Shown one piece after another: positions 10,524 through 59,226 of a stretch of 64,000 bases of DNA; within the stretch, counting starts at the first letter, position 1; every line of letters begins with the position of its first letter. Location of the stretch: the IMG/VR virus record IMGVR_UViG_3300032038_000025, positions 1 through 64,000 of that record; one strand, written 5' to 3'. The notes beneath the pieces were generated by a model. It was not told the origin of the DNA and made no database searches. It saw only the letters and a list, made by a program, of their open reading frames with translations. This DNA comes from a virus (Duplodnaviria; Caudoviricetes). The translations under genes were made by a program, and so were the position numbers.

Positions 10524-10716
10524 ATATACGGATGCTGGCGGAGAACTTCTTCAGCCGCGGTAGAAAGAAGGCTCGGTAGGCTTTATCAGATTTGAGGCGT
10601 CCAGTGTAAATCTGTTTTAATACCTGAAAAAGGGACAAGAGTAGGGGTCTGCCAAACCAGAGTCCCTGAAACAGCTACGGCGCAAGTTAAGAGAAATGCT
10701 GTTAGGGCAGACATTT

Positions 10717-10789
10717 ATGACCATAGTCTAATAGGTTAAGACGGGAGTCTTTCAAGCTCTTAATGTGAGTTCAAATCTCACTGGTTGTA
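10717..10789 (+). tRNA. tRNA-Glu(TTC)
   Basis: Cloverleaf; anticodon loop CT-TTC-AA. Confidence 0.8.
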
Positions 10790-10800
10790 TTATTTTTTAT

Positions 10801-12655: not shown

Positions 12656-12804
12656 AAGACAGAAAACAGCAAAAAAATGATACAAAATTAAGTAAATACA
12701 ATTTCTTACAGAAAGTGCTGAAGTTTTTAAGTGGTTTTGATTTTGTTTTTTGGTAAGCCGCCTATCTATAGGTTGTTAGTAAAAAAGAGAAACCTCCTGT
12801 CTTG
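12656..12804 (+). ncRNA. stem-ACAGCAA module 1
   Basis: AAGACAG-AAA-ACAGCAA ... CTGTCTTG terminal stem, right after a promoter. Confidence 0.55.
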
Positions 12805-12886
12805 TGCGAAAGGTCACGCGCCTGACCAAATGCAAATCCGGCGTGCGGTTGAAGTGGGAAGCCCGCTTAAAACAAGCCCACAATAT

Positions 12887-12960
12887 GGGGGCATAGCTCA
12901 GTTGGTGGTAGCGAGTGACTGTTAATCACTAGGTCGAAGGTTCAAGTCCTTCTGTCCCCG
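12887..12960 (+). tRNA. tRNA-Asn(GTT)
   Basis: Cloverleaf. Confidence 0.9.
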
Positions 12961-12966
12961 TTTAAT

Positions 12967-13047
12967 ACTCTGATGGCGTAATTGGCAGCCGCGCTGGTCT
13001 TAGGAACCAGTCCTTTATGGGTGAGGGTTCGAGTCCCTCTCGGAGTA
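12967..13047 (+). tRNA. tRNA-Leu(TAG anticodon)
   Basis: CTGGT-CTTAGGA-ACCAG; variable arm. Confidence 0.9.
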
Positions 13048-13224
13048 CGCAAGTGGGAGTTCTAAGCCACTTTTTAAAAAGAATGAACAGCGTTGTGTTT
13101 TTATAATAGTTTTTCACTCTCGGCCTTAATATGTTAGCAAAAAAAACTATAGAGAGGAAAGACCCTCGTTAGGTGTTCTTTAGTTGCAACCCTCTCGCTT
13201 CCCTAATGCGCATATGGGAAGATT

Positions 13225-13290
13225 TGGAACGAAGTTTTTCAGGCAAAAACACTCGCGGAGAGAATGTGGGTTCAATCCCCACCGTTCCAT
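13225..13290 (+). ncRNA. tRNA-like RNA with truncated anticodon arm
   Basis: Perfect acceptor TGGAACG/CGTTCCA, D and T arms; anticodon arm reduced to CTC-GCG-GAG. Confidence 0.6.
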
Positions 13291-13759
13291 TTTGTCAGAT
13301 AAGACATTAAAATCAGCGTTATCATGGATTAGAGTTAAACTACCACCGACTATGTAATTCGACCCTTTGGGAGTTGTATTAGGTATGTGGCTTTGTGGGA
13401 AACGCTTAATAAAGACGCAAAGTAAACTCATTTTTAATTATCAGTATCTATCGTGCCTCTTAACAATGCGTACCAGGATAGATCAGCTCTTTAATTTATT
13501 ATAATTATGTCAAAATATCGAAGCTAGTTTCTAAACAGCCCTCTTCGAGGCACATAATTATATAATCGGTAGTCAAGCATTAAAAGGCAATAAGAAAATA
13601 AAGCTGGATTACTTAGGGACACCAAGGAGAGACACCTTATAGAGCAGGGGAAAATCCATAAGATACTCTAAAATCATCGTTGCAACCCTAAACAGATGCG
13701 TGTGATTGAAACTGCACACCCGATTATTTACTTTTAAAAAAGAAAGAGAGGGACTTATT

Positions 13760-13939
13760 ATGAAAGATAATAAAACTGTAGTTTATATGGTAACTTATCA
13801 GGATGATAACAAGAAAACTCATCTTACTTTTGTAAAAGGTTTTTCTTCTGTTAGATTTATTAAAAATCGTTTTGAAAATGTACGGTTTGAAGTAACAGAT
13901 AAATATTGTCGAGAAGAAAGAGAAATGTTTGATTTTTAA
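13760..13939 (+). CDS. small hypothetical protein
   Basis: GAGGG RBS before MKDNKTVVY. Confidence 0.6.
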   Translation: MKDNKTVVYMVTYQDDNKKTHLTFVKGFSSVRFIKNRFENVRFEVTDKYCREEREMFDF

Positions 13940-14289
13940 TAAAATTTTTGATATAATATATATATAAGATATATAGCAATGGTGATTGGATTTAATAGTG
14001 TACATAAACATCCAAAGAGTCCACCACACTGCGGCGGTCGGTAGCGAGAGACCATAGCAGACTACCTCGAAGGGGTCATGACCTTCTAATTCAGGCTATA
14101 AATGGACGGAATAGGGAGCCTAGAAAATGGACAAAGCTATATATCAGTACTGATGTTGAATCTCATGGCTAAGCACTGAAGGAATTCCGAGGGATTGGAG
14201 GATGCGGAGGAGTAGGAAAAAGTAGGGTCCTTTGAAGTGCAATCAACAAGGTGGGACAGGTAGAGTGAGAACATTTACCCACATTTTTT

Positions 14290-14361
14290 AGTCTTATAGT
14301 ATAATGGTTAGTACACTAGATTGTCTCTCTAGAGGTCGGGGTTCGATTCCCCGTAGGATTG
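14290..14361 (+). tRNA. tRNA-Asp(GTC)
   Basis: Cloverleaf. Confidence 0.85.
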
Positions 14362-14366
14362 TTTAA

Positions 14367-14438
14367 CGCTCAGTGGTCAAGTGGTTAAGACGCCAGTCTC
14401 TAAAACTGGAAACTCGAGTTCGATCCTCGGATGAGCGA
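14367..14438 (+). tRNA. amber suppressor tRNA (CTA anticodon) with a tRNA-Glu-type body
   Basis: CCAGT-CT-CTA-AA-ACTGG (anticodon 14400-14402); D arm TGGTCAAGTGGTTAAGAC; 4-nt variable loop; C1:G72. Confidence 0.9.
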
Positions 14439-14612
14439 TAGGTCCAGACTAGCTCTAGACGTAAAACTAAATAAGACTTTATTGTAGGCTAGTAGAGATA
14501 AAGTCAAAATTGAGAGTCTCTCACCGCGTCTGTCCCAGCTCGGTATATAAATGCATTGGGATGGGGAGGAAACCCTACTGAAGAAAACCATTTTGAGGTT
14601 TGCGCAGACCTC

Positions 14613-14690
14613 ACTGTATATGTGTTTGCTGGTGCAAACATTACCCTCAGTAAGGGTGAAGATGATAGGTTCGATTCCTGTATATACAGT
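14613..14690 (+). tRNA. atypical tRNA-like RNA, nominal anticodon AGT (Thr)
   Basis: 8-9 bp acceptor, 7 bp D stem with 4-nt loop, 6 bp anticodon stem, normal T arm. Confidence 0.55.
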
Positions 14691-14695
14691 TTTAT

Positions 14696-14769
14696 CGCGG
14701 GGTGGAGCAGTCTGGAAGCTCGTCAGAGTCATGTTCTGAAGGTCGGAGGTTCGAATCCTTCTCCCGCAA
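14696..14769 (+). tRNA. tRNA-Met(CAT), initiator-like body
   Basis: C1xA72 mismatch and CGCGGGGTGGAGCAG 5' end. Confidence 0.85.
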
Positions 14770-14771
14770 TT

Positions 14772-14874
14772 TAGTCACACACAGCAAAATTGTCAAGGTA
14801 GCGAAAAGGTTAACGCATTAGAATTTTAATCTAAGAATTGTTGGTTCAAATCCAACCCATGGTAATGTGACTAG
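14772..14874 (+). ncRNA. stem-ACAGCAA module 2, enclosing a tRNA-Lys(TTT)-like cloverleaf
   Basis: TAGTCACA/TGTGACTA outer stem; inner D arm, TTAGA-ATTTTAA-TCTAA anticodon arm and T arm. Confidence 0.65.
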
Positions 14875-14879
14875 AAAAT

Positions 14880-14951
14880 GCCGTCATAGCGCAATGGTAG
14901 CGCAAGTGTTTTGTAAACACTGGGTTGGGAGTTCGAATCTCTCTGGCGGCT
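14880..14951 (+). tRNA. tRNA-Thr(TGT)
   Basis: Cloverleaf. Confidence 0.9.
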
Positions 14952-14954
14952 TCA

Positions 14955-15026
14955 GCAGGAGTAGTACAGAGGTTAGTGCGCTAGTCTTCCAAACTAGTTA
15001 CGCGGGTTCAATTCCCGTCTCTTGCT
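14955..15026 (+). tRNA. tRNA-Gly(TCC)
   Basis: Cloverleaf. Confidence 0.9.
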
Positions 15027-15032
15027 TTATAT

Positions 15033-15105
15033 GGGGTCATAGCTCAGCTGGGAGAGCACATCCCTTGCAAGGATGAGGTCGAGAGTTCGATTCTCTCTGA
15101 CTCCA
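15033..15105 (+). tRNA. tRNA-Ala(TGC)
   Basis: Cloverleaf; G3:U70. Confidence 0.9.
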
Positions 15106-15139
15106 CTATTGCGATATCTGGATTTATTTAATTTTAACT

Positions 15140-15212
15140 ACTCGATTAACTCAGCTGGGAGAGTGCGACTCTTACAAAGTCGAAGTCGTTGGTTCAAGTC
15201 CAACATCGAGTA
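15140..15212 (+). tRNA. tRNA-Val(TAC)
   Basis: Cloverleaf. Confidence 0.9.
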
Positions 15213-15218
15213 CTGTTT

Positions 15219-15633
15219 GCGGGCGTGGCGTAAGGGCAGCCGCACGGGACTTTTTCCTAACAAACTATAAAGGAGAGCCTTATAGTGGAAACATTATAAG
15301 TGTAGGTGGCTAATTCGGCGAAAGGTTAGGCAACGCCGAGCTAAATTAAAATAATAGTGCCAATGAAGGTTGGTTTGGGAGTTAACCCAAATAAGATGCA
15401 AGACAGGGCGGAGGTCGCGCCTCCATAAAACCTTAGATATAGGCGAGGGACTGACTAAGGGGAAACTATTATTTTATAAATGTGTAGAGACTATATACCA
15501 TCTACCTAAGTCAGAAATGATATGGTAAAGACATAGTCCAGACTACAACGCTAATGGGCGGCTATGGTGACATAGAGTAGTAAGAAAATCCCGGGGACGA
15601 GAGTCCGTGTGAGTTCGAATCTCACCGCCCGCA
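15219..15633 (+). tRNA. tRNA-Leu(TAA) containing a group I intron
   Basis: Exons CGGGA-CTT | AAAA-TCCCG rejoin to give the UAA anticodon. Confidence 0.85.
15253..15584 (+). mobile_element. group I intron without an ORF, after U34 of tRNA-Leu
   Basis: 5' exon ends in U, intron ends in G; core-like GTAGAGACTA and GACATAGTCC segments. Confidence 0.8.
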
Positions 15634-15639
15634 TTTTTT

Positions 15640-15713
15640 GGCTCCATCGTCTAAATGGTAAGGACGCAGCCCTTTCAAGGCTGAAATGTTGGGTTCAAGT
15701 CCCATTGGAGCTG
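15640..15713 (+). tRNA. tRNA-Glu(TTC), second copy
   Basis: CAGCC-CTTTCAA-GGCTG. Confidence 0.9.
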
Positions 15714-15717
15714 CTAT

Positions 15718-15801
15718 GGGTGAGTAGACGACTAAGGAGATTGGCGGGGCTGTAAACCCCGTGGCTTTGGCACCGAGTGGGTTCGATTCCCTCTTCACCC
15801 A
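15718..15801 (+). tRNA. tRNA-Tyr(GTA)
   Basis: Cloverleaf with variable arm. Confidence 0.85.
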
Positions 15802-16032
15802 TTCTCGTAGCCGTATATTTATGGGTAGCTCCCAACGAGAGATATAAATAAATACGGTAAATCTTAATTTATATAACTGATCGACCCAGGCGTAAGGGTA
15901 CAGAATATGACAATATCTATATTGTAAATTCCGCGGTTTAAGTGATGAACGTATGCATTGGTTATAACGCAGCCATTAATAAAAAGAATTGTTCTCAAAG
16001 ATTTAAGAATGAGAATGAAAGGAGATTTTATT

Positions 16033-16329
16033 ATGAAAATTTTATATCAAAGTGACATTACAGGTAAAACTTATGAATCTGAGGCGGCCCTTGTAAAAGC
16101 AGAAGCTGAAATTTCAAAAGCAAAGCAGGAAGAAGAGCTAAAGAAGAAAGAACGCGCAGAAGCGGCAAAGGTAGTTCAAGCTAAACTGGACGCCGCCAAG
16201 AAAGCTCAGAAAGAAGCTCAGGAGAGTCTTGTTGACTTTTGTAAAAAGTATGGAACATTTAAGACCTCTCTTGACAGAAAAAGCGTTTTTGATCCATTCA
16301 GTTTTTTCTTTGATCCATTTGAGTTTTAA
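16033..16329 (+). CDS. hypothetical coiled-coil protein
   Basis: GGAG RBS before MKILYQS. Confidence 0.75.
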   Translation: MKILYQSDITGKTYESEAALVKAEAEISKAKQEEELKKKERAEAAKVVQAKLDAAKKAQKEAQESLVDFCKKYGTFKTSLDRKSVFDPFSFFFDPFEF

Positions 16330-16402
16330 CCCATAAATCACGAAATACTTATCTGATTATTTACAGTTTTCATGGCGTTTTGCGAATGCAAGACGCTTTT
16401 AA

Positions 16403-16473
16403 CGAGAATGTGGTGTAATGGTAGCACGCCAGTTTTGGGAACTGGAGGCGAGGTTCGAATCCTACATTTTCGA
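16403..16473 (+). tRNA. tRNA-Pro(TGG)
   Basis: CCAGT-TTTGGGA-ACTGG. Confidence 0.8.
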
Positions 16474-16582
16474 TTACTTTTTTATTAATTATTACAAAAG
16501 TTTTACATTTTGGTCAAATTTATGTAATATTTCCTTAATATTTTTTATATTTAATATAAGAAATAGTTAAGGAGGAAAAATA

Positions 16583-17458
16583 TTGATTAAAAAATTTATT
16601 GTAGTATTATTATCATGTTTTATTTTATGCGGTTTTGCAAGTCCAATAGAAGCAAGCGAATTAAATTAGAAGAAATCTCTTCCAATTTAGCCCACACTGA
16701 GAACAAATTTTAATCAAAATGCTAATTTAAAGATTAATGATTATAATTTTATTGACACTTTGGAAAAACGTAGTAAAAATAAAAAAAGTGATAATATAAC
16801 CTTTTTACATGCGGTTCCCGTCTTACATGCGGAAATAGTCGAGGTCCCCGCATAGCCAGTAGAAGAATAGGTTTATATAGAATAGGAGCCTATTGTTTAT
16901 GAAGAATAGGTTGCTTATTAGGAAGAACCAGTTTACTATGAATAGGAGCCTACAGTCTATTATTAGGAACCAATTTATTATGAAGAAACTGTAATTCCAG
17001 AAGAAGAAGAATATATAGTATATGAATAGCCACAATACGTTGAAGAAGAAATAACTTATAATTATGAAACAACAGAACAAGTATCTTATGATAATTCTTC
17101 TACCGTTGGTCAATAGATTGTAAATAATGCATTACAATATGTTGGTAATCCTTATGTATATGGCGGAAATAGTTTGACAAATGGAATTGACTGTTCTGGT
17201 TTTACTCAACAAATATTAGCGGCGTCTGGTATTACAATAGACAGAACAGCAGAAAGTCAATCTTATGGTGGAGAATATGTTGATTTAAATAATTTACAAG
17301 CTGGAGATTTATTATTTTATGATAATGGTGATTTTATTGGGCATGTTGCAATCTATTGCGGAGATGGAACAGTTGTACATGCCAGTGATGAAATTACGGG
17401 TATAACTGTTTCTGATGTTAACTACAGAACTCCAGCATTAGCTAAAAGGTACTGGTAA
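16583..17458 (+). CDS. secreted NlpC/P60 (C40) peptidase with E/Y/P-rich linker (11 in-frame TAG)
   Basis: GGAGG RBS and TTG start; signal peptide; GNPYVYGG..GIDCSGF, GHVAIY and HAS motifs. Confidence 0.85.
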
Positions 17459-17472
17459 CAGTACCTAATTAA

Positions 17473-17556
17473 GCGCGTGTCACCTAGCGGCTAGGGTAAC
17501 GGACTTTTAATCCGTCAAGATTCGTCTCATCGTGGGTTCAAATCCCGCCACGCGCA
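17473..17556 (+). tRNA. tRNA-Lys(TTT) with long variable arm
   Basis: ACGGA-CTTTTAA-TCCGT followed by a 16-nt variable region. Confidence 0.8.
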
Positions 17557-17936
17557 TTTTCTGCGGGAAGAACAATATCAAATAATATTGTAGGTATGGT
17601 GAAATGATATATCCGCCTCAAAACAGAAACTGTCTCAGCAGTAATATTATAATACATTAAAACAGTTGAATTGTAAATAATTTTGATTTTGTCGGTTTAT
17701 AATCCAAGACTGAGATATTGGAGTGATCAGCTGCACTTAATAAATAAACGATAAAATTCGTAGATGAAATTATAAACTATATTATTTGAAAAACAAGGGA
17801 ATAGGATGAGGAGCGGCGATGCAGACCACTTAATAATGTCTAGGCATCAAGTAGTTTTAGAATAATATAGTTTATAAGGAAGTCTAAAAAATATTTGATT
17901 TTTAATAAAAATTTTGATATAATATATATATAAAGT

Positions 17937-21430: not shown

Positions 21431-21529
21431 GTTAAATAATTTGGTCAAAAATAAATAATTCTTCTATTGAATTTTTAATATATATTTAGATATAATAAAG
21501 TTTTAATGGAGACAAAAGGAGGAAAACAA

Positions 21530-24500
21530 ATGGCGTTAGTATCAAATTTATATCCGCCAATAGTTCAAGATACAAGTGTTGTTTTTTCTAAAAATACACC
21601 CTGTAGAATTTATTTTTAGTTATCTCCATATAATTCAGCTGATGATATAAAAAATGTACAAATTTCTTTAACAAATTTACGTACCAATGCTTCTGGTTTC
21701 AATAGTGATATTGTATAGAAATCTTCTGGAATAAAAATAGTTGGAATGAAAGATTAGGACTCTTCTTCTAGACATTATATTGAAATATTTCCGGCGGATA
21801 TGGCAAATGGCCAATTTGAAACAGGACAATTTTATAAAGTTCAGTTAAGATTTACGCATACTAGCGCGAAAGATATAGGAGATTTTATAAAACAATCAAG
21901 TAGCGATGAAGATAGCGATGAAAATAATTCTATAAAAAAATTAAAAAATGCTATATAGATAGTTTAGAATCTTGTAAATGAATATGAATATAAAGATGAA
22001 GAAACTATTAATAAATTAATAAATGAAATTAATGCAATAAATATTTCATCAAGAGAAAATGAAATAAATACAAAAGATATTGCTAATTGGCTATATAATC
22101 AAAGAGATTATTTTTCTTAGTGGTCTAAAATTATTTTAATAAAAGGTATAGATCCGCCGAGTATTTCGTTAAAATCTTTTAATGAAGTATAGAGTTTTTC
22201 TGGAAAAATTATGTTAACTCAACCTACTGTTAATATTGTTGGAAAAGTAAATTTTTCACAAAATAAGACAGATTCATTAAAAAGTTATAATATAAAACTT
22301 TATGATAAAGAGTCAAATGCTCTTTTATATCGAACAGAAGAAATATATCCTATTTCACCAGGTTCTAATGAGATTAATTATGAATTAATATATGATTTTT
22401 AGGATGCAGTTGATTATACTTTTAAATTAACATACACTACATTAGATGGATATACAAATTCAATTAGTAGGGATTTTTATATTATTCAAACCGAAGCGTT
22501 AACAGATAAAGTACCCGCAGATATAAATATTTTTGAAGATTCGGATAATGGAAGAATAAAAGTTAAAATTACCGCAAATACTGAAGATACTTTTTTAGGT
22601 AATATAGTCATTAGAAGAACTTCTTCTTAGTCTTAGTTTCATAAATGGGAAGATGTTCGTATTATTTCATATGCAGAATTTAGTAAAATTGATATTACTT
22701 GGTATGATAAAACTGTTAAAAGCGGCGTTTGGTATAAATATGGAATGCAAAAAGAAAACTCAACAGGATTTAGAGGAACTTTTACACAAGTAAAATAGCC
22801 AGTAATGTGTCTTTTTGATGACATATTTTTAATAAGAAAAAATGCTCAATTAAGAATAAATTTAAATCCATCTCTTAATGAATTTAAATATAATGTAATG
22901 GAATCTCAACAAAATCCATTAGGTTCAAAATTTCCTTTTATAAAAAGAAATTCTTCTAATTTTTTTAGAACATTCCCTATTGGAGGATTAATTAGTTCTT
23001 TTATGGATACTACAGATTGGTATGATCCTCATTTTTAGATTGGAATAAATAATAAAGGCGAAGAATAGGGTGTTTTTTATAATAATAAAAATTAGTTAAA
23101 ACTTTTTACATCAAAAGAAAAAATATATAAAAATTCTAAAGATTTATATAAACAATATAATAATGATAATAATATTAATTAGTATCAAGATTATATATAT
23201 GAAAGAGAATTTAGACAAAAGGTTTATGATTTTTTATATGCAAATGATGTAAAATTATTTAAATCTACAACAGAAGGAAATATTCTTATTAAATTAATGA
23301 ATATTGACTTTCAACCAATGGAGGCTTTAGGGCGGCGACTTTATTCATTTACCGCAACCGCTGTATAGATAGATGAATCTACTATTTTAAATTTTGATAA
23401 ATATGACATTCAAACAATTGGAACAGCCATCCAAGAAATTGGTTTTGATTATGATGTTTTAGGACAAATTGATGGAATTTTTAAGCCAAAAGATAATGGT
23501 AATGGTGCATCTGTTCCAGATAATATTATGCCATATATTCAACAAAAACAAAAAAATAGTCGTCAACAGTAGGGTTATATAGATGAACTTCAAAAACTAA
23601 AATGGGTAAGAATTGAAATTACATCTCCTCCATACGTTATTGTTAATGATGCTTCATTGGGATTAAGAAAAGCTAATCAAAATGATAATTTAGAAAATGC
23701 TATGATGGGATATTTAGTTATAATAAACGGAAATACAGTTATAATTCCTCCATCTGAATAGCGGCGAGATAATAATCTTCTTGAACCAAAAAATAATCCT
23801 ATTGAAGATATTTATATTTAGCATATAGGTTTTTTTGAATTAAAAGGAGATAATATTGCAGTTACTAGTTTAGCTTTCCCATAGGAAACTGAAGTAAGAA
23901 TAGATTATCTTGCTAATTTCATGTAGAAATAGGATGTTTCAAAGCAAATTAAAGGTGCTTATTATGACTATAGAGCTGGACAGCTTTATGATATATTTTA
24001 TCCTACCGATTCTGTTTTTAGAATAATTTCTAATAAATATTTGTTAGATTATGCAGATTACTATCAGAGATTAATTAATATTTCTGGAGTTGGACTTTCT
24101 GGCCCGCCTAAAACAACAGTATATGTAAGAGATTCTAAGGACAGTTCTTTTAATCGTCATATTTTAGAAAATGGATTTCTTCAATTAATAGATGAAGAAG
24201 CTAGCATTAATGGATTATATTTTTGCGGCGTTCATTTATAGCAATGTACGGATCCATTGTAGACCAAAAAAATAAATGGTCTTACTGATTTTAATTTTAT
24301 TGAAGGAACTTATTCTAATTTAAATGATATAATAAATCCTGCTAATGGCAATATCTATTAGATTGAAAAATGGGTAACAGAATAGGCGGCTGTTCAACCT
24401 TAGGCATGGATGGAAGATAATGTAATTCTAGTAGCAGAATTTAGTGAAACAGAAAGCCAAACATATAATTATACTTTATATCCAGAGTATTCTATTATAG

Positions 24501-25006
24501 ATCCTAAAAATTTATATACTTTATTATTAGATAGATATAAGTATAATTATAAGGTATATTTTGCTTATTATTATGGATGTTGGTACCTACTTCCCGCAAC
24601 AAGTCCTAATTAGGCAATAAGTGATGAAATAATAGATCAATTTTTAGAACAATTTAGACATGATATTAGATATTTAAGATAGGATGAATATATTATAACA
24701 GGTCAAAGTGCAGATACCTTTGAAGAAATAACAGATCCAATCCCAAATGGTGTATATACGATAGCTGCCGCGACAAATGATGAAGGTAGGTCTACTCTTA
24801 AAGGTACGAAAGAATATCTTATTAATACAGAATCTAAATATTCAAATAATATATTACAGGCTCTTATCAAAAATTCTAATAATAGATGTATTTATTATAA
24901 AGGTCAATGGTGCCATTTTACATCGGAAAATGATGTACTTTGTCCAGTTGAAGCCATTGTAGACTACTATTGTGAAATTGAAAAAGGAGTTTATAATAAT
25001 GGCTAA
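21530..25006 (+). CDS. large virion tail/baseplate protein (TAG read-through, about 1158 aa)
   Basis: GGAGG RBS; track fragments at 22211, 22805, 24041 and 24410 share its frame; LYPP, FS*WS and YEREF motifs. Confidence 0.75.
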
Positions 25007-27056
25007 TAATTTTCCATATTTAAAAGATTCTACTTTTTTAAAAAAATTTGATAGAATAAAATTAAAAGAACAACTTGTAAAATTAGTTGTTTTAGATTTT
25101 AAAACATAGACTCCCATCCAAGAAATTCAAGGTAAGGTTCTTGGAGGGAGCTTTACTTTTGATGGGTCTTCCGCGATGAGAAGAACTGGTAATGTTACTT
25201 TAGTAGCAAGTGATACAGAGAATAATTTAAGTAATGTTAATTATTTATTATCTATAAATAAAAAGATAGAAGTGTTAATTGGTTTTGTAAATACTACAAA
25301 TTAGTATTTAGACTATCCAGTTTTATGGTTTCCAATGGGAATTTATGTAATAGTAAATTCTAGTATTGCACATGGCTCTGGAGGAATAACTATTACATTA
25401 ACTCTACATGATAAAATGGCTTTATTAAATGGAGAATGCGGCGGCACCCTTCCCGCATCTGTTATTTTTAGTTAGGTTGAAGAGATAGACGAAGAAGGAA
25501 ATACTTATATAAGTAATCCAACTATTTATCAAATAATTCAATAGTTAGTTAATCATTTTGGCGAAGAACAGCTAGGAAAAATTATTATTAGTGATCTTGA
25601 TAATCAAATTAAAAAGGTTATGAAATGGACTGGCGGCAGCCCGCTGTATCGCTACAGTGGAGTAAATAAAGATGGTCAAATATCTTATAGTTTAACCACA
25701 AATTATAAAGATTTAAAAGATGAAAATAATAATCAATTAGATGTCTCTGAAATACAAAGTTATACATATGGAGATGATGTTGGTTATATTTTAACTGATT
25801 TTATATATCCTGGATAGTTACTTGGTAATGCGGGCGATTCTATTGTTACAATATTAGATCAAATTAAAAATACTTTAGGTAATTATTAGTATTTTTATGA
25901 TAGATAGGGAAATTTTCATTTTCAAGAAATAAAAAATTATTTAAATAATTCTTTTACAACTAGTATAATAAATGAAATAAAGTCATAGGATTATTCAATA
26001 AATTATAGTAGAGAAAAAAATGTATATTCATTTGATGATGCTAATTTAATTTTGTCATATACTAATACCCCACAATACCAGCAAATTAAAAATGATTTTG
26101 TTATTTGGGGAAAAAGAAAATCAATAGAAGGAAAAGAAATTCCTATTCGTTATCATTTAGCTATTGATGATAAACCGAAAGATGGAAATATATATTAGTG
26201 CTTTTTTTATGAAGATCCAGATGATGGTTTAATTAAAGCCAAAAAACCATTAATGTTTTCTTCTTTTGATAATCTACCTAAAAAAGGTTAGGCTGATATT
26301 TATTACTGCGTTTCTGACAATGATAATCAAGAGAAGAAAATATATAAATGGATTCCAGAGGCGGCAGCCTATCAATTAACTAATTATAAATTAAAAACTA
26401 TTATAACTTCAGACTATAGAACTGAATTATATTTTTCTGGAGTGGATAAATAGCCATTTGGATTAGATAGCAATTATTATTTCACTTAGTTAAAAAATGA
26501 ATGGCCTAAGATATATAATATTGAAACTGGCGAATTTAAAAATGCAAATAAAAATGCAGCAAACAATCTTGATTATTATTTAGATTTAATAGATTCATCT
26601 GCCGCAATATCAGAATTTAGTGTAAATAATATAGGAAGAAGAACTGCAACTATTGTAGATGATAAAATTAATTGTATTTTTGAACCAGAAATTCCTAATC
26701 TTATTTTAATTGAAGCTGGGGCAGAAAATGCAAATATAATTAAAAATTGGTGTAACAAACAAGGTCAAGATTGGATTCAAGTTAAGAGTGAAGTTTATTC
26801 TTTATTATTAACAGGAGGAACAATGCGATCTGCTTATGAATAGATTAGAAGATAGTTATATCAATACACATGTTATAATGAACAAGTATCAATAACAACT
26901 TTACCTATATATTATTTAGAACCAAATACAAGAATTTCAATTACAAATAATTAGATAGGAATTAATGGAGATTATATTATAAAATCTTTAACAATTCCCT
27001 TAGATATAAATGGAACTATGAGTATCTCTTGCTCAAAGGCAATTGATAGATTGTGA
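24999..27056 (+). CDS. tail/baseplate hub-like protein (TAG read-through)
   Basis: Overlaps upstream stop; WFPMGIYV, LGNY*YFYD and LPIYYLEPNTRI motifs; ends TGA. Confidence 0.75.
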
Positions 27057-48395: not shown

Positions 48396-51300
48396 TTATC
48401 GTCTCATTGCGCGCTGTGCGGCAAGATTTACTAAGTTATTAAACGCATCTTCAATCTATTGTTTGCTATTAACATTTGGGAAAGATGCTTCAATTTTTAT
48501 ATTTTGTTCAATAGTATCTGATTGATTATTAAACATATTAAAACCAGATTTAATATTAGACATTTTTACTTGAAGCCCATCTTTAAAATTACCAGCAATC
48601 TATCTTAATATTGAAATACCATTTAAGAAATTTTTAGTATCATCTTGATTTAAAACTAACTACTTTTTATCAAGTATAGCAATTTGACCCTAGTCTGAAT
48701 TCCAATCTCCCGTATAACCACCAGAAGCAAATCTTGCAATAGTTCTACGAGTTAATGAATTTCCTCCTTGAAGATAAAGATGTCCAGGTTGATTTGAACT
48801 TGATGCATTTGGTTTTTTAACATTATTAGATGTGCTTCCAGATCCATCAGAACCAGATCCGCCTCCATCAGAACCAGAACCACCAGTTCCATTATCTCCA
48901 CTAGACTGATATGCATTAGATAAAGCTGCTAATCTAGCTTGTAAATTAGCGGCTGCTTGGTAAATAGTATCCGTCATTCGCTAATAAGCCTTGCCGGTTT
49001 CAGCATAAACCGCCGCTTGTTCACGCTAATTATCAATAACACTTTTAATTTGGCTGACCATTTCTTTCGCAGCTGTGGTAACATTTTTATACTGTTCTTT
49101 TAAAGCATCTGCCGCAGTTTTTAACTATAATATAGCACTAAGTTCAGTAGACATACGATTAATCAACTAATCATTCTATTCAACTAAATCAGAAAACTCA
49201 TCAGTTAATTCATCAGTTCCTTCTGCAACATCATCTAAACTGATACCCGCAATTTCTGCCATCTATTCTAACTATTTTTGATAGTTTTTAGTGGTCTAAT
49301 CTAATGCTTCAAATGCTTTTTGGGTTGCTGGTATAAGACCGCCCTCTCCAGTGATTTTATCCATCATTTGTTGAATACCACCATTCCACCCAGGAACAAG
49401 AGTTTCCATAAGCGTTTTTAATTGCTCTTTAGACATATTTTTATAATTTTCAACATTAGTATTATATAAAGACGCATAATTTTGAATGGCAGAATCCATT
49501 AAATTGTTTCTAATATTAAGATTTTGCTATATATAACCAGTAATTTTATCTTGATATGCCTCATCTAGTAATGCTATTTGCTATGCTTTCTATTCTTCAG
49601 TTAAGGTAGCATCTAACATTAACTACATTCTTTTTTCTATATATTCTTGATAAGCAGCATACATTTCATCCAAATTTTGACGATATTTATCTTTATCAAA
49701 ATTATATAATTCATTTTGAGCATCAAGATAATTTTGTTGAGCATCTTCAATGCTCTATTCATCAGCAACATATTGATAAGAATAATTACCTTGAGCATCT
49801 CGTTTTAGTCTTAAAGATGTCTTACTAGATTGCGCCTATTCAAGAGCTATTCTAGCCTGTTCAACTTGTAACAGTTTTTCTGCTCTATCAACATCATATT
49901 GAGTTAATTTTTCTCTAGTCTTTAAATTCTCTAATTGTTCATCCATTAGTTTCTTTAAAGCCTTTTGATTTTTTAACCCATCTGTATTATTAATAGCTTT
50001 TTGGAATTTGTTTTCAAGAGATTGAAGTTCATAAGCAGAATTTACAGTATCTAAATATTCATCTGCGGCATCCTGCATATACTCCCACTCTTGACCTAGA
50101 TAATCAAGTCCTTTACCATTAGTAAGATTATTATTTAATTCTTCAAAAATTAAATTAAAAGTATTAGTATATTTATCTCTAATAAGATTTGCGCCATCCT
50201 ATATAGCGGAATTGATATTCTAAATAGCTCTCTTATAATTTTCTTCAAACTTTTCAGCTGCATTTGTCTGACCTGCGGCGATTGCAGCATCACGCCGTTG
50301 TTTCAAGAAATCCGCCTGTTTTCTTAATGAATCAATCTGCTTATTTTGATTATTTAGCATTTTATTATAATATTTATCCATTGCCGCATAATTCTTATCA
50401 CCATAAAGAATTTGCAATAAATCAATATTATGCTAAATTAAACCATTAACAAAATCATATCCTTCAATTTGTTTATCAAATTGATCTGCAATATCATCAA
50501 TAGTATCAAGATAAGCCTTATCAATATTATCAACAAGCTACTCAACTTCTTCCATTTGGTTCATTAATTCTTCCCAATCCTAAACCAAATGTTCCATAGC
50601 TTGTGCTTTGTCTTTGCCATAAATATCAGACCAACCAGTTTCATTGATTTCATTTATTTCTGCAAAATCTGCTTTTAATTGGTTAGTTAGTTTTTCGATT
50701 GAACCAATTGATCCACCTAAACCGCCATCTCCAAAGTATGAACGAAGATCATTAAAATCTTGTTTAACATCTCCAAATAATTCATCAAATTCACTATCTT
50801 TAAGAATATCTGTCGGCTAAAGAACATTTCTTACAAAATCATTCCAATCTCTTGCGGCTTCACCCATATCAAGACGAAGTTCAATTGAATAGCGGAATTT
50901 TTTAATATTATTTTCAATTTGCTTTTGAAGAGCTTCATCAAGAGCATCATTAGTTTCACCATACTCATTTTGAATATCTTCATATTGTTTAATTGCGCTC
51001 TAAAGCTATTTAAGTGCATCTTCGCCCTATTTGATTTTATCATCATATTCTTTAATAGCGGCAGATAGACCCTCTTTATAGGCTTTATCGGTAGATTTAT
51101 TATATTTCTAAACAAGTTCATTTCTTTGAGCAATTAATCCATTTAATTCAGACTATTTTCCAGTTAAAATCTATTGATAATTAGCAATATTATTATATTT
51201 ATCAAAAGTAACACCAAGATTTTTAAGAGTCTATCTTTGATTCTTTAAATCCTATTTTTGAATTTTTTGTTTTTCTTTTAATTTAGCAATACTTTTATCA

Positions 51301-54300
51301 AGGGTTGCATTCTGCTTATTTAAATTATCAATATATTGTTTACCAAATAATTTATCCTAATCTTTGGTTAACTTCTAAAGTGAACGATCAATCTTTTTAA
51401 GATCTCGATTGACATCATGATAAGGATCGGCGGTTTTCTTTAATGGCTTTTTCTTTTCCTTTTTAGAGGTATCAGGCTTGGTTCCACCGCCGCCTCCTCC
51501 GCCTCCGCCGCCACCTTTTTTGCCGCCGCTTCCGCCGGCATTACTGGCGTGCTTATATTTAAATCCACCACCGGAAGATTTATTTGCAGATATAACTTTT
51601 AAACCAAAAGCTTTGCTTTGTTTTTTTACTTTCATAGGTTCTGGTTTTGGAGTGACATCTAAAGCATCATATTGCCATGTTCCACTATATCCATCTCCAG
51701 CCTAAATAACAGGACCAGAATCTGAAGAACCCATACTAACCTATGGAAATCTAACAGTACCTGTTACAGTTCTTGCATTTGCATCATATGCAGCTACCTC
51801 AGACTCTTCTTCTGCATCAGTATCTGTTTCAATAACTTCTGCATCAACACCCATAGAAGCAAGATAATCAGTAGCTTGTTGAGCCGTTTGGAAAGCCCCA
51901 TCAACCATCTAACTCAATCCATTTAAAAAATCTTGATTATTTAATGAAGCACCAATCTACATATCATCAAGATTTTGACCCTAATAATATTTATTCATTA
52001 AATCATTAAAACCATTATTAAAGTCTTCTGTATTAAGTCCAACTTGCATAGCAATATCTTGTTGTGCAGCTTCCATTAAATCATCATAAGCCTCTTCAGA
52101 TCCCTATGCAGCCGCCTTCATTAAATCAAGATTTTCTGCATTGGTTAAAAAGTCTTCTGATAAAGATGTCCCATCTAGATCAAGTAAATCAGAATATGCA
52201 TCTCTTAACTCTCCTATGGCTTTAGATTGTTTTTGTAAACTACCACTAGAAAGTGCATCCATCCAATCTTCATAATTATCAGACACATCTTTAATAGCAT
52301 CGTCAAATCTTAAAACAGCTTCAGCAACATCTTCTGCCGCTCGCCCATCCTATTGTAAACTATCTGCTAATTCCTCAGACGATGTACTCATCTACTAAAT
52401 TACCTAAGTCATTTTAGCTAATTCACTCTAATCAACATCTTCATCAGTTGGAAACATCGCATCATGCATTTGATGAGCAAATTCTTTCCATATCTATTCA
52501 TTTTCTTTAGCTTTTTCAGAAAGGTCTCCAGTATAATCACTAATTTCAGTAACTTTATTAGCTAATGCTTCAGCTTGTTGAGCTGTTAATTCTCCATTGT
52601 TAGCAAGTTGTAACCATTTTTCAGCAAGCCATTTAGTTCTTTCATCAGTATCTCCAACAACATCTCTTAAATATTCAGCTTGTTTAACAGCCTGATCCAT
52701 TTCAACATAAGTATGAGTTTGTGAACCTCCACGCCCAGCATTACCATATGCATCTGAAAAAGCTGCAACTTTAGTTTCCTAAGTTTTTACTGCACTTTTA
52801 GTTAATTCATCATAATTTTGATTAGTAACTGTGTCTGGATGAGCTTGAGCATTACCAATTCTACTTAATCTATTTTCAATTTCTCCCATTGCAGCATGGA
52901 AGCCATCAAGTTTAAAAGAATTAATAGTTTCATAAAATTCTTTAGCATTACCAACTAATTTATAAGTACCATCGCCAGCAATTTTAAAATAAGATTTAAG
53001 CTATGGAGCAAGACTATCAAAATCTTCTGATGAAATATTCTTACCACTTCGTACAGTATCCTAAATACCTTGATATTGATTATAAGTTTCAGCTGCTTTT
53101 CTTTGATAATCTTGAAAATTATCTTTATTTAAATTAACTGCCGCAAGGTTAGATAAATCCATTCCCGCAATTTTTTGAATAAGTGCTAATAAAGTGTCCC
53201 AACTATCAATAGCCTATGGATCCACTTCAATAAAATCAAATAATGCATTAAGATGCTATTCATCTAATGATTCAAGAGCCTTTTTAACACCCTCTGTCAT
53301 TTCTCCGTCAAACTTGTCGTTCCACTATTTAATTTTATCTGCATACTCATCAAATTGAATAAATTTATCTCTATAGTTTCTAGCCAACTATGCATCAACC
53401 ATTGCATATAACTAATCATCACTATATTTTCCTTCTCCAAATTGCGCCTCAAGAGAATCTTTTAATGCTTCTCTGGCGTCCATATAATCATAAACGCTTT
53501 CAATGGCCTCATCTTGAATTTCAGGAAGTTTTAAAGCCTCAAGCTATGTAGAATATTTTTCATAATCCTTCATAGCAGCATCGTATGATTTTACACTATC
53601 CTCCATAGATTTTAACCATTGAGTTACCTCTTTATAAAGTGGAGACTATTCTAATTCTTTTTTCTGCTTCTAACTAAGATTATCTGTATACTAATTAATA
53701 GCATCATTTAGCTCATGATAAAAATTAACAATATCATCGCCCTCTAAATCCATTGAAAACTATAAACCATTCATGGTCTAATCTTGAAAAGCTGAAAGTT
53801 GAGATAAGGCTGTTCTTAATCCATTATCTTGTCTTCTACCACTACTAAATGTAATACCATATTGATTTGTAAGAGTATTTGCATCACCATTTGTTTTTGT
53901 AGCGACATCCTAAGCTACAAGTTTCCCGGCAGATTCCATTTCTGCTTTTGCAGATTCTTTTCCTTCTTCAGCAGCCGCCCTTCTTTTCTTAAGAATTCCT
54001 TCTGTTAAATTATCATAATGTTTTCTTAACTAATCTGCGGCCTACCCCTATAAACCATACTGATCAATAAGATTTTCAATTTGAGATTTTAACTAATTTC
54101 TAGTAATTTCATGCTATTCATATTTCTTTTGTAACTAGTCTAAAGATGAATATAATCCTCTTTGAGCCTAAATATTTTCTTGGATTGCATTTGCCTATTC
54201 AATATTTGCTTTAGCATTCTAAATGGCTTGTCTTCTTGCTTGCTATTTTATTGTTATAAGAGTTGTTATAACTGTAGCAACTGCCATTACTGCTGCAACA

Positions 54301-56960
54301 GCCACACCAGCAGAAAGACCTCCCAAACCAAATAATCCTATAATGGCGGCTCTGGCTTGAGTAAAACCATAAATAAGCATTGGAATCATACTAGTAATAT
54401 TTGTTGTTAATTGTAAAAATCTCTAACCATCTGTTAAATCTTTATTATTCCAAATATTACCAAGATTTTGAAATTGTTGGATAACCGAAGTTAATGTTGC
54501 AACGGAACCAGCTAATGCAGTCACATTTTGAACAGTTGATTGTAAATCTACATCTTTTTTCTTTTGATTAAAACTTTTATTTAAAGCAGCTCTTTCTTCT
54601 TCTAATTTTTGCTTTTGTTGTCTATATTCTTCTAATTTTCCTTCTTCTGCACTTTCTATTAATTCATCTATATGTTGAATTTGCGAATTTATAGTTTGCA
54701 TTAAATTCTTATAAATATTATCTACAACATCTGCGGCCTATTTATTAGTTCCTTTAAAAGTAGATGTATCAAAACTATTTAAATCATTTTGCATGTTTTG
54801 AAGAGATTTCTTTACATTATCAGATAAAAAACTAAATGGACTATTAGCCTCATTTAATTTAAATCCATCAAAAACATCTTGCATAGAATCTTTTAAAGTA
54901 TTAATTTGTTTTGCAAGCTGACCATTTTGATTAAAAGTATTGTTTTGATTTTGAGCATTTAATAAAGTAGATCCAGTAAAATCTTTATAAGCCTGTCTTA
55001 ATTTATCTTGTTCTGTTTGGACTGGTTTAAATGCATCTTTAAGTTCTAATAATTTATTTTTAAATTTCTCAATACCATTTTGACCAGCTAGAGCCTCATT
55101 TAAGTCATTATACCCATCCATAAAAATATCAACATTTTGACTTAAAGCCTTAAAACCCTATTCTAATAAATGATATTTTTCTCTAGCAACATCTAGCTCT
55201 CCAGCATTTTTACTTATATCTTGCAATTGCTTTTGCATGATATTAAAATCTCCTGAAGATAACTTTCCACTTTGAGCCATTTTTAAAAGATCATTCTATT
55301 GATTAATTATAAATTGAGTGGTATCATCTCCAACGCCTTTATCTTGTAAATTTTTAGCTTCTGCAATTGCATTTTTAATATATTGAGTTTGTTGTTTAAC
55401 TTTCTCAAAATTATTAATAGTAGTAGTAATACTGCCTGCTATTTGTTTACTAAAGACTAGCATAGCAACAGAACCAAGATCTCTTAATACTCCTATGCCG
55501 CCACCAATACTATCAACAAAATTAGCACCAAAAGTCGCAAGCTATGATAATGCATCAATTATTTTATTAATACTATCTGTATCAGCTAAACTATCATATA
55601 TATCTTCCATTGATGCCTTTAATGTTTGAAGATGTGCAGCTGTTGAATCCATATAAGTATCTTGTTGCTCTTGTAACGTACCTGCCGCACCTTGCGCAGT
55701 AGCTAATGCTTCATTATATTTTTCAAAATTATCAAATAAAGCAATTAAATTAGAATATTGTCTTTGACCTGCCATAGTTTGTGCTAAAGAAATCTGTTGC
55801 TCACGAGTTAATGATTCCCATTTATTACCAATTTCTTCCATTACCTCGCCCATATCACGAAGATTACCATTCATGTCAAGAACATTAAATCCTAATTCTG
55901 CCATTTTTCCAGAATAATTACCAAGAGTAACGCCATCTTCATCAATACCAGCTTTAATATCACTAATACGAGCATATACGGTTCTTAAAGCAGTACCAAC
56001 ACTTTCAGGCGCCTGCCTAGTAACAGAAATAATTGTTGACAACTGTGCGGCTAACTGATCCTAACCTACACCCATCGCGGCGGCCGCACTTGCAACCTTA
56101 CTCATACCAGTACTTAATTCCTAAAGGTTTGATGCCGTTGTTGCAGCAACCGCAGCCAGTCTATCAACATAAAGCTATGCTTCATCCGCGGTAACTTTAT
56201 AACCATTCCATACAGCAGTTAACTATTCTGAAACAGCATCTGTTGATTGACCAGTAACGTTAGCAGCTTTAAGAGTAATTGCCGCTCTTGCCTATATCTA
56301 TTTATCTGACAAACCCTGTTGTGCATAAATTAATGCAGCATTGGTATAATCAGTTGTTGTTTTTCCTAATTCTTTTGCAGCATTATTAGCTTGTACTGCA
56401 AATTTAGCCATTTCATCACTAGATTTACCAGTAACAATTCTAATATCATTTAATGATGTATCTAATGCTTTTACATATCCCCATGCCTGTTCAACAGATC
56501 GTGAAAAACCATTAACAACACTAGAAGCCACATTCCATTTAATTGTATTAGCAAGTGTTTTTGCCATTTTATCAAGTAAAGCATGGCTTTCTTTTAATTG
56601 AATATTAGTAGTTAAAAGTTGTGTAGTTAAATTTCTAAATGCGGCTTCTCCGGCAGCCCCCGCTCTAGTAAAAGTCTGATAAACTTGCTAAATTGGTAAA
56701 CTCCCTAATTCTTTTTTAAAAATTTCAAGATTAACCGTTCCTAATTTAACATTAAAAGCCTTATCAAGTGCCTACTACACTTTCCTAGCTTCTTTTTCAA
56801 TTTCCTTAAAATAGCCTCTTGCAGTTTGTATATCAGTATTATTAATCTTCATTACATCACTAACTTTCATTTTTTGTAAGTCTTGTAATGAAGATTTTAA
56901 CTGATTTAAATTCTGGGTATTAACATCAAATCCAACTTGATATTTAATTTGATTTGCCAT
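48396..56960 (-). CDS. tape measure protein (TAG read-through, about 2854 aa)
   Basis: 12 track fragments share one frame; TP901-type core LDTSLNDIRIVTG and VTRQAPESVGTALRT; FASGGYTG near the C-terminus. Confidence 0.9.
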
Positions 56961-57600: not shown

Positions 57601-59226
57601 TCAACATTTGCTTAACCTAATTTTAATCTCTGTAAATGGTTTACCAAACCAACCTGCGGTTTGATTTCCATCACCAGACTCCCAATTGGTGTCGTGAATT
57701 TCAGAATAGTATTTGTTATTATCATAGGGTTTTACAGAATATACTGCTTCATAGTAAACCCCACCAGTTTTTGTTGTATCTGTAGTATAATAGATTTGAA
57801 TAGCATCTAAACTATTAACACCATTTCCTACCCACTGTCCATTAGAGTATTTTTTAGACCAACCTTTATTGAGGTAATGAACTCTATACTGAACAGAACC
57901 AGAAGAAACATTCATTTTAATTTTAAGAATACTGTCATTTGCTACACCTGCGGCGGCGCCGTTCTTTGCAGCTTTAAGGGTGCCGTGATTTCTTGTCTGA
58001 AGGGTGTAAGAGATTGTAGGTGCGGCGGTCGCCATTGAAGCGCTCGTATTACCAGTGGTTGTAATAGTCGTCTAAGCGGTGGTTGCCGCAGCTCCATACT
58101 TCGGACGAGCATATCCTCGAATGTTGCCATCGCCTATTGTATAATAGCATCTTCTTACAGCATTATTACTATTTCCTTCAATAGTAACAATTGTCTTACC
58201 ATTCACGGTCTCGACAATACCAATGTGGTCTGCAAAACCATCATTGGGCTGAGTAGAATCGTCCCAGTTAAAGGTAATAATATCACCCGCTTTGGGAATA
58301 ATGCTTCCATCTTCATACCAAATTCCTTTAGCTTTGAATAATTGTATATGCCTTTCAACGCCACATTCTGTTCCACCAATTAGATCAGTGGCACCAGCCT
58401 TGATAAACGCAGCAGAAAGAGTGGCATCACACCATGCATCATACATGGAAAGAGCCACACCAAGAGCGAGAGGTTTATGATTGTTGTATGTATTAATAAC
58501 ATCTGCATGAGCATTGGCATTGTTAATCCATCCACGGTAAACATTCAGTACCTGTTCTGCGGTCACGCCAGTTTTAGCTTTTGCTTTTGTTGTAGTCTTT
58601 GACGAAGAAGATTTCTGCGCATACTTTTTCCAGTCGGCGGCAGTGCCATAAAAAATATTGAGATCCAGATTGGAATTATATCCATTTAATCTTCCTGCGC
58701 CAGTATACTGATAGATTGCAACCTTACCAAAAGTTCCCCAACCATTAGCGTCAGTCCAAGGATTAGATTGATATCCGTATACTAAATTATGATTTGCGTA
58801 TTGCGCACACCAAAGTGGGTATCCCGCAGAACCAACCGACGCCGCAAGAGGAACAATACTTTTGCTTGTATAAAGGAAAGGCTTTACACCAGAAAGTTTA
58901 TAAAACTCATCCATTAAATTTTTAAGATAAGAAATATTGTTCCAAGCACTATTTTGATAAGACTACCAATCAATAGCCATAATAGCTTTTCCAATATAAT
59001 TTTTTACTTTATTATAGAAAAACTTCGCCTATGCGGCAGCTCCACCGCCACCAACATAATGATAACACCCCGCAAGTTTACCTCTATTTAGCACAGTGTC
59101 GATCTTATAAAAATCAGGATTGATATATGTTGTACCTTGCGTTGCCTTAACAATACAAAAATCATATGGTATCTTGGTTACATCTACTGAGTTATTTGAA
59201 GAAATATCAACTCCATTTAATGCCAT
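57601..59226 (-). CDS. modular endolysin GH25 + CHAP + cell-wall-binding domain (3 in-frame TAG)
   Basis: Three track fragments in one frame; GVDIS, KATQG, IDW*, WCD...HIGIV...EGN motifs. Confidence 0.9.

Follow-up and report, generated by a model that had tools for sequence, protein, structure and literature searches.

An amber suppressor tRNA with a tRNA-Glu-type body in a TAG-recoded phage

Introduction

Which amino acid is inserted at TAG by a phage that carries its own tRNA for this codon? The question is raised by a tRNA gene with the anticodon CUA in the window, by which we mean the whole 64,000-nt stretch of DNA analysed here. This stretch corresponds to the first 64 kb of a virus record of 117,928 bp, estimated to be 88% complete, for which the best DNA source among public runs is a bovine gut metagenome. 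Recoding of TAG in phages is known from the "code 15" phages of the phAss-1 group, which carry suppressor tRNA(CUA) genes (PMC10607447), and from TAG-recoded crAss-like phages validated by metaproteomics (PMC9523058), and the default annotation of recoded phages uses table 15, in which TAG is Gln. A first-pass annotation of the window had proposed a different reading for this tRNA, namely a tRNA-Glu scaffold that is charged with Glu and not amidated.

TAG codons in the phage genome

Reading TAG as a sense codon about doubles the summed ORF length, and about 340 in-frame TAGs are found in 80 non-overlapping ORFs, 259 of them within the window. The codons are concentrated in tail, head, and lysis genes, including the following:

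21506..27056, plus strand: two genes of the tail region, 21506-25006 with 29 in-frame TAGs and 24747-27056 with 17, putative clients of the tRNA
48396..56960, minus strand: tape measure gene with 85 in-frame TAGs, putatively the largest client of the tRNA
57601-59226: GH25-CHAP endolysin gene, with a TAG at residue 88 (58963..58965, minus strand)

Two features of a recoding system are present in the phage, that is, many in-frame TAGs whose reading restores long genes and a cognate CUA tRNA. Accessory genes for release factors or synthetases occur in some recoded phages and are not obligatory. In the orthologues of the two tail-region genes in two relatives (L021 and L026), no TAG is found at any well-aligned position, compared with 46 TAGs in the tail genes of the window phage, and the set of recoded genes therefore shifts rapidly across the clade. 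Among deposited genomes, phAss-1 is the nearest (52.6% identity in the major capsid protein), ahead of standard-code Enterococcus phages such as EF1 (37%). A search for relatives in IMG/VR with a 1524-aa protein found none. Several of the Pfam families matched by proteins of the phage and its relatives bear gene names of the Bacillus prophage SPbeta (YonB, YomU, and others).

The suppressor tRNA gene and its surroundings

The gene, its parts, and its upstream neighbor are as follows:

14289..14362, plus strand: tRNA-Asp(GUC), found by ARAGORN and Rfam, 4 nt upstream of tRNA(CUA) with the spacer TTAA
14367..14438, plus strand: tRNA(CUA), an amber suppressor with a tRNA-Glu-type body (ARAGORN, Rfam, covariance models)
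14376..14391, plus strand: D arm GUCA-AGUGGUUA-AGAC (DNA letters GTCAAGTGGTTAAGAC), with U11:A24, A13.A22, and an 8-nt loop
14400..14402, plus strand: anticodon CTA, within the loop CUCUAAA, which is invariant in 6/6 copies compared
14410..14413, plus strand: 4-nt variable loop AAAC, position 47 absent

ARAGORN calls a 72-nt tRNA at 14367-14438 on the plus strand, with the anticodon CTA at 14400-14402, and the Rfam tRNA model matches the same interval with 55.9 bits against a gathering score of 29. The cloverleaf is the minimum-free-energy fold of this interval, with a fold z-score of -0.25, which is non-significant; fold z-scores are usually non-significant for tRNAs. The acceptor stem consists of C1:G72, G2:C71, C3:G70, U4:A69, C5:G68, and A6:U67 and has a mismatch, G7xA66, and U8 and G9 link it to the D arm, which is 16 nt long (a 17-mer when G9 is included). 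The 3' part of the molecule has a 5-bp T stem, the T loop UUCGAUC, and the discriminator A73, and CCA is not encoded. C34, U35, and A37 are retained and position 36 is A. It is this A36 that makes the window tRNA a suppressor, that is, a derivative of tRNA-Glu and not a tRNA-Glu isoacceptor.

ARAGORN labels the gene "Pyl", a label that reflects the anticodon alone, and we rejected this identity on structure. A tRNA-Pyl has a 6-bp anticodon stem, a 3-nt variable loop, a tiny D loop without G18G19, and one base between the acceptor and D stems, whereas in the window tRNA, which is canonical, the anticodon stem has 5 bp, the D loop has 8 nt and includes GG, and both U8 and G9 are present.

ARAGORN finds 21 tRNAs in the window, all within 10.7-19.8 kb. 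The suppressor sits in an early-type region with a sigma factor gene alongside, and it probably shares a precursor transcript with tRNA-Asp(GUC). A contig of one RNA library overlaps the 3' half of the suppressor and the downstream spacer. We consider this to be only a weak hint of transcription; the RNA-library contigs are short and possibly contain DNA, parts that they leave uncovered mean nothing, and they give no measure of expression level. An HDV-like (theta) ribozyme 3' of the suppressor was also looked for, and there was no Rfam match. Around the gene, two further observations were made. At 14617-14689 on the plus strand ARAGORN calls a tRNA-Thr(AGU), for which the Rfam tRNA model has no match even at E = 1, which makes the call doubtful. 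In addition, RNA contigs from four bovine-gut RNA libraries in three studies lie at 13060-13723, 14016-14136, 14402-14612, 15272-15560, 17570-17879, and 18365-18619, with 0-5 differences, and cover mainly the spacers between tRNAs. They might reflect stable non-coding RNAs in the tRNA cluster, although carry-over of DNA is not excluded.

The tRNA body is of Glu type

Three other tRNAs of the window were used for comparison, scored with the covariance models described below:

10716..10790, plus strand: phage tRNA-Glu(UUC), copy 1; Glu and Gln models 49.3 and 34.9 bits
15640..15714, plus strand: phage tRNA-Glu(UUC), copy 2; Glu and Gln models 53.0 and 41.8 bits
18059..18130, plus strand: phage tRNA-Gln(UUG), the contrast case; Glu and Gln models 58.6 and 78.1 bits

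Four lines of evidence show that the body of the suppressor is Glu-type and not Gln-type. The D-arm 17-mer was scanned for over about 185,000 species genomes, and the scan was stopped at 120 loci, almost all from Bacillota. All of the cellular tRNAs that bear the 17-mer in these loci are tRNA-Glu (115/115; 95 UUC and 20 CUC), and among at least 120 genome loci scanned it occurred in no tRNA-Gln. A position-specific scoring matrix (PSSM) for isotypes, built from 481 distinct class-I tRNAs of the D-arm loci and correct for 476/481 in leave-one-out tests, scored the window tRNA at -1.3 for Glu, -35.9 for Asp, and -72.7 for Gln, and still ranked Glu first when the D arm was masked. The eight nearest non-suppressor tRNAs are all cellular Bacillota tRNA-Glu, with up to 74% identity. 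Finally, home-made covariance models from 60 tRNA-Glu and 27 tRNA-Gln gave the window tRNA 65.7 bits as Glu versus 37.5 bits as Gln. For genuine tRNAs of the phage loci with both scores, the Glu-minus-Gln difference is +11 to +32 bits for tRNA-Glu and -19 to -35 bits for tRNA-Gln.

A concern with these scores is that the Glu training set, both for the PSSM and for the covariance models, was selected by the window tRNA's own D arm, which inflates the score of the window copy. The covariance models nevertheless assign phage tRNA-Glu with other D arms to the correct class. For phage-borne tRNAs the PSSM is correct in only about 63% of cases, and we therefore relied on it for the window copy only; on the suppressors of relatives its best isotypes were inconsistent (Met, Lys, Cys), and these results were set aside.

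Individual positions can be compared with cellular Bacillota tRNAs. The variable loop has 4 nt in 90/90 tRNA-Glu and 5 nt in 24/27 tRNA-Gln, and A73 is present in 71/90 tRNA-Glu and in 0/27 tRNA-Gln. In A73, U11:A24, the 16-nt D arm, and the 4-nt variable loop, the window tRNA matches cellular Glu and not Gln. Its acceptor positions 2-5, GCUC, are shared with 16 cellular tRNA-Glu, which among the titled D-arm loci come mostly from Lachnospiraceae and other Clostridia. The first pair is an exception, as C1:G72 occurs in 0/90 cellular tRNA-Glu and, among cellular tRNAs, only in tRNA-Pro. The 27 cellular tRNA-Gln have U:A (22), U.G (3), or A:U (2) at 1:72, and the Gln genes read from alignments and phage loci end in G73. 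Phage-borne tRNA-Gln likewise all keep U1:A72 or A1:U72, and G73; the one in the window has A1:U72, G73, C11:G24, and a 5-nt variable loop.

The first-pass annotation had proposed a Glu scaffold and had noted the anticodon CUA, U11:A24 in the D arm, a 4-nt variable loop, C1:G72, and G7xA66, as well as the D stems of the window's other tRNAs, GUC...GAC in both tRNA-Glu(UUC) (GTC...GAC in DNA letters) versus GCC...GGC in tRNA-Gln(UUG). All of these observations held, and so did the scaffold itself, by the census, the PSSM, the nearest neighbors, and the covariance models. The isotype scoring that it had suggested as a check also came out best for Glu, here with our home-made PSSM and covariance models. 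C1:G72, which it had listed, is present, yet it is not a feature of tRNA-Glu.

Beside the contrast tRNA, a weak Rfam match to YrlA (Y RNA-like) lies at 17956-18058 on the plus strand (30.5 bits, gathering score 69, E 0.0016). It directly precedes tRNA-Gln and is 1.7 kb upstream of a gene for a DUF2828 protein (19805-21388, plus strand), which is an RNA-binding protein according to PHROGs (phrog_850). Elsewhere, a Glu-type tRNA(CUA) was found on an unrelated GC-rich viral contig (IMG/VR 3300021400_001383, L002:1477-1548, minus strand), with the same D arm, the variable loop AAAC, G1.U72, and 67.9 bits for Glu versus 56.8 for Gln; its 13-kb surroundings do not appear to be TAG-recoded.

The suppressor family in related phages

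A single CUA tRNA follows tRNA-Asp/Glu in every relative whose fetched locus covers that stretch, and it precedes tRNA-Met in most of them and tRNA-Thr in one. Six suppressor copies of four distinct types were compared. Pairs of the acceptor, anticodon, and T stems are canonical across the six, many of them covarying, apart from the G7xA66 mismatch of the window copy. The loop CUCUAAA, C1:G72, G2, C3:G70, and C5:G68 are invariant, and A73 is found in 5/6. A search of IMG/VR for further matches to the tRNA pattern gave none with a second pattern, whose spacing was overly strict.

The suppressors of relatives are only 61-65% identical to the window tRNA, which is below the identity of cellular tRNA-Glu, and they are near neutral between the Glu and Gln models (49.9/47.8 bits in L022, 48.0/48.2 bits in L024). 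The first-pass annotation had relied on U11:A24 and the absence of nucleotide 47 as GluRS identity elements, and this emphasis held in part. Both are true of the window copy; however, one lineage has A11:U24, the suppressors of three relative lineages have 5-nt variable loops, and one relative's tRNA-Gln carries U11:A24. Neither U11:A24 nor the 4-nt variable loop is constant among relatives, so they do not define the suppressor family. Relatives' suppressors have instead the acceptor G2.U71-C3-C4-C5, which in our Bacillota sample is found only in tRNA-Glu (45/90) and tRNA-Asp (9/31) and which, combined with A73, is Glu-only. The family therefore appears to derive from tRNA-Glu, with the retained Glu features differing between lineages.

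In two relatives a tRNA-Glu(CUC) lies ~450 nt upstream of the suppressor (L024:3661-3734 and L025:4152-4225). In the standard register its acceptor end has C1:G72, G2.U71, and A73 and is suppressor-like; an alternative 8-bp register makes this reading of the acceptor uncertain.

Codon correspondence indicates that TAG is Glu

The meaning of TAG was read from the codons that stand opposite it in relatives. Their DNA was fetched around three TAG-free anchor genes, for the capsid protein, the sigma factor, and the DUF2828 protein (loci L006-L026), and was used instead of database proteins because some proteins are stored with TAG = Q. Public database proteins of the clade that are translated in this way include those of L006/L007 (protein P0006). 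Sites were counted if their local context was good and one or more of 10 non-redundant lineages had a sense codon there, which gave 46 TAG sites, and the substitution frequencies for the likelihoods were measured on the same alignments. Since the lineages are related, site counts are not fully independent, and one observation per site was taken as mitigation.

At 29 of the 46 sites the majority residue is E; N has the majority at 3, and Q, D, L, S, and V at 2 each. The log10 likelihoods are -34.6 for E, -64.8 for D, and -65.5 for Q, which puts Glu ahead of Gln by about 31 log10 units. At a small number of TAG sites relatives have Q, Y, or N, and the Q share of 2/46 is near the 2% expected for true Glu sites. 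The commonest codon opposite TAG is GAA, two changes away. CAG, one change from TAG, is never a partner codon, and Gln is seen only as CAA, at 3 sites. In the tail-region genes at 21506-27056, L021 and L026 have Glu at 14 to 16 of the window phage's well-aligned TAG sites. Against the distant phAss-1 and Enterococcus phage EF1, the likelihoods were -51.3 for E and -59.3 for Q (log10). As a control, the same method was applied to phAss-1 and returned Gln (Q -33.3 versus E below -42.1, with E at -43.7 once EF1 was added), in agreement with the published description of phAss-1, which also assigns Gln to TAG (PMC10607447). In the endolysin, the TAG at 58963-58965 aligns to the Glu of the D-x-E motif, the E of IDVE in PDB 2wag, and another TAG aligns to a Q in the same structure.

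L006, L008, L023, and L024 also read TAG as Glu. The exception is L022 (ENA contig SHIW14-1...scaffold_290), a relative with about 75% amino-acid identity that is Gln-like or mixed in ORFs 12756-21224. Of its 21 aligned TAG sites, 8 correspond to Q and 5 to E (log10 -23.1 versus -29.6, Q favored by 6.5), and its CUA tRNA is 94% identical to that of the Glu-reading L024. Mixed decoding, a switched meaning, or a second tRNA outside the locus are all possible explanations.

We therefore conclude by codon correspondence with relatives that TAG is Glu in this phage. This is shown from alignments; there are no aminoacylation or proteomic data, and the insertion of Glu itself is inferred. Some other approaches gave no information. 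TAG sites in RecJ lie at variable positions (T/E, R, L/I, H, Q) and were uninformative, RuvC and NrdG had no PDB match as distant structural homologues, and codon composition was dropped as a test of Glu against Gln, as GAG and CAG are both depleted in TAG-rich genes.

A proposed route from tRNA-Glu to TAG decoding

Taken together, we propose that tRNA(CUA) is the phage's own TAG decoder, an amber suppressor that would have arisen from a Bacillota-type tRNA-Glu by a change from a CUC-type anticodon to CUA. It would be transcribed within the tRNA cluster of the early region and charged with glutamate by the host GluRS. Neither GatCAB nor GlnRS would turn it into Gln-tRNA, the one by conversion and the other by charging, the product would stay Glu-tRNA, and Glu would be inserted at roughly 340 in-frame TAGs, which are concentrated in structural and lysis genes and include the catalytic Glu of the GH25 endolysin. 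The proposal as a whole appears likely to us, with the charging enzyme, the escape from amidation, and the timing of expression being inferred. Its role as decoder is also likely, given that it is the sole CUA tRNA in the record, is syntenic in relatives, and has covarying stems and the invariant CUCUAAA loop. Its A37-A38 context is inferred to help, being one that favors amber suppression.

The predicted involvement of a host enzyme in charging follows from the lack of any synthetase found in the phage record. That no Gln-tRNA would form is inferred from C1:G72, A73, and the Glu-size D loop, in place of U1:A72/G73. Bacterial GatCAB needs U1:A72 and a D loop of tRNA-Gln size, and GlnRS prefers a weak 1:72 pair and G73. 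A weak point is position 36. In E. coli and T. thermophilus, GluRS identity depends in part on C36; the window tRNA has A there, and its efficient charging is therefore not guaranteed. Bacillota often have a non-discriminating GluRS that accepts both C36 and G36, and such relaxed reading of position 36 may help with A36. Also against the proposal are C1:G72, which is foreign to cellular tRNA-Glu, and the G7xA66 mismatch in the window copy.

The first-pass annotation had drawn a similar picture, and several of its statements can be judged here. Its inference that the tRNA is charged with Glu and not amidated is supported by the Glu body and the codon evidence, while both steps, GluRS charging and the avoidance of GatCAB, are still only inferred. 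The agreement that it saw with protein evidence for TAG = Glu held, by the independent codon correspondence. No synthetase or release factor had been visible to it in the window, and this held when extended to the whole 118-kb record (88% complete), from which the GluRS/GlnRS catalytic domain (PF00749) and the RF-1 domain (PF00472) are both absent. A separate Gln-body CUA tRNA elsewhere in the genome would have spoken against it; ARAGORN found no second CUA tRNA of any kind across the whole 117,928-bp record (88% complete). It remains possible that the missing 12% holds a second decoder or an enzyme.

Alternative explanations

The most conventional alternative is an ordinary code-15 suppressor, with Gln inserted at TAG after charging by a GlnRS that tolerates CUA, as in supE. 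In its favor, Gln is the assignment for phage TAG throughout the literature that we found, the clade's database proteins are stored accordingly, one endolysin TAG stands opposite Q in PDB 2wag, and a few other sites are Q in relatives. However, codon correspondence prefers Glu by the wide margin given above with a method that does recover Gln for phAss-1, none of C1:G72, A73, C3:G70, U11:A24, and the 4-nt variable loop is Gln-type, and the Gln model scores far below the Glu model. We consider this explanation very unlikely. Gln could also be inserted by the indirect pathway, in which a non-discriminating GluRS charges Glu and GatCAB amidates it. Many Bacillota make Gln-tRNA in this way, and the overall architecture of tRNA(CUA) is Glu/Gln-like. 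Against this stand C1:G72 and the 16-nt Glu-size D arm, which do not meet the needs of GatCAB, the retention of U1:A72 or A1:U72 and G73 by all phage-borne tRNA-Gln, and the codon evidence for Glu, and there is again very little to recommend it.

Decoding might instead be ambiguous, with a mixed charge (Glu with some Gln or Lys) or more than one tRNA, so that TAG is Glu statistically and not uniformly. In E. coli, GlnRS and LysRS tend to mischarge amber suppressors, an engineered tRNA-Glu(CUA) reportedly gave mainly Glu and some Gln, the close relative L022 is mixed (Q 8, E 5), and phAss-1 has three different CUA tRNAs. Yet the Q share in the window phage is no more than about what true Glu sites would give, and a mixture would be costly where TAG encodes a catalytic Glu. 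This makes ambiguity unlikely, though less remote than the readings with Gln alone. Finally, tRNA(CUA) could be a bystander or a decaying gene, with TAG read by a host suppressor or by a tRNA in the missing part of the genome. The incompleteness of the record and the G7xA66 mismatch would allow for this, but the conserved position, covarying stems, and invariant anticodon loop across diverged relatives, the match between body type and inferred amino acid, and, as a weak hint of expression, the one RNA-library contig over the 3' half all argue against it, and we hold it to be very improbable.

With a Glu-inserting suppressor of the phage's own as the preferred reading, a bolder one can be considered, namely that TAG = Glu is a distinct natural phage code and that what TAG stands for can shift readily in evolution inside a single phage lineage. 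The switch would be set by a few identity nucleotides of the suppressor (1:72, 73, and the size of the D loop), on which it would depend whether the Glu-charged tRNA stays as it is or passes to the Gln pathway, with the invariant C1:G72 as insulation against GatCAB and GlnRS. The pattern invoked is Gln in phAss-1, Glu in the window clade, and a Gln-like or mixed reading in L022. This is no more than a possibility.

Implications and comparison with known systems

Should TAG be Glu, each genome of a clade with thousands of members would have hundreds of residues wrongly annotated, a systematic Q-for-E error that includes a catalytic endolysin residue. It would also be a second amino-acid meaning for a phage-recoded stop codon, reached from tRNA-Glu through one anticodon change and changes at the acceptor end. 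Sister groups with Gln and Glu readings offer a way to study how the identity of a recoded codon is determined, and a natural amber suppressor that inserts Glu is a possible genetic tool in Bacillota.

The window phage resembles code-15 phages in having a CUA tRNA in a cluster, TAGs in structural and lysis genes, and no phage synthetase. Unlike in these phages, where TAG is Gln, TAG is Glu here and the tRNA is Glu-type (65.7/37.5 bits). The phAss-1 CUA tRNA at 62536-62610 (OQ749652.1; L147-L149) is Gln-type, with 24.5 bits in the Glu model and 50.5 in the Gln model; of the other two phAss-1 CUA tRNAs, one shows a long variable arm and the other matches neither model. The reading of TAG thus differs between two phage groups with 52.6% identity in their capsid proteins. 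In comparison with Bacillota tRNA-Glu (UUC, CUC), the window tRNA has an identical 17-nt D arm, a 4-nt variable loop, A73, and GCUC at positions 2-5, and departs from them in having CUA (YUC in tRNA-Glu), A38 (C38), and C1:G72 (G1:C72), in the G7xA66 mismatch, and in the lack of an encoded CCA.

An engineered amber suppressor from E. coli tRNA-Glu is reported to insert mainly Glu (Kleina, Normanly, Abelson and Miller 1990), and it shares with the window tRNA a tRNA-Glu body, the CUA anticodon, and a CUCUAAA-type loop. That construct was made in the laboratory, in a host with a discriminating GluRS and GlnRS, whereas the window tRNA is natural, phage-borne, and selected across a clade. Among natural codes, the nuclear code of peritrich ciliates (NCBI table 30) reads TAA and TAG as Glu and is alike in turning a stop codon to glutamate via a Glu-type suppressor tRNA. 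It is eukaryotic, genome-wide, and covers both TAA and TAG, while the window phage changes TAG only, in a host that presumably uses the standard code. In the literature that we searched, which did not cover subscription journals, we did not find a Glu assignment for phage TAG, and all assignments were Gln. Stop codon recoding in phages with a phage-borne suppressor is thus known, and what is new in this phage is the amino acid, Glu, and the ancestry of the suppressor.
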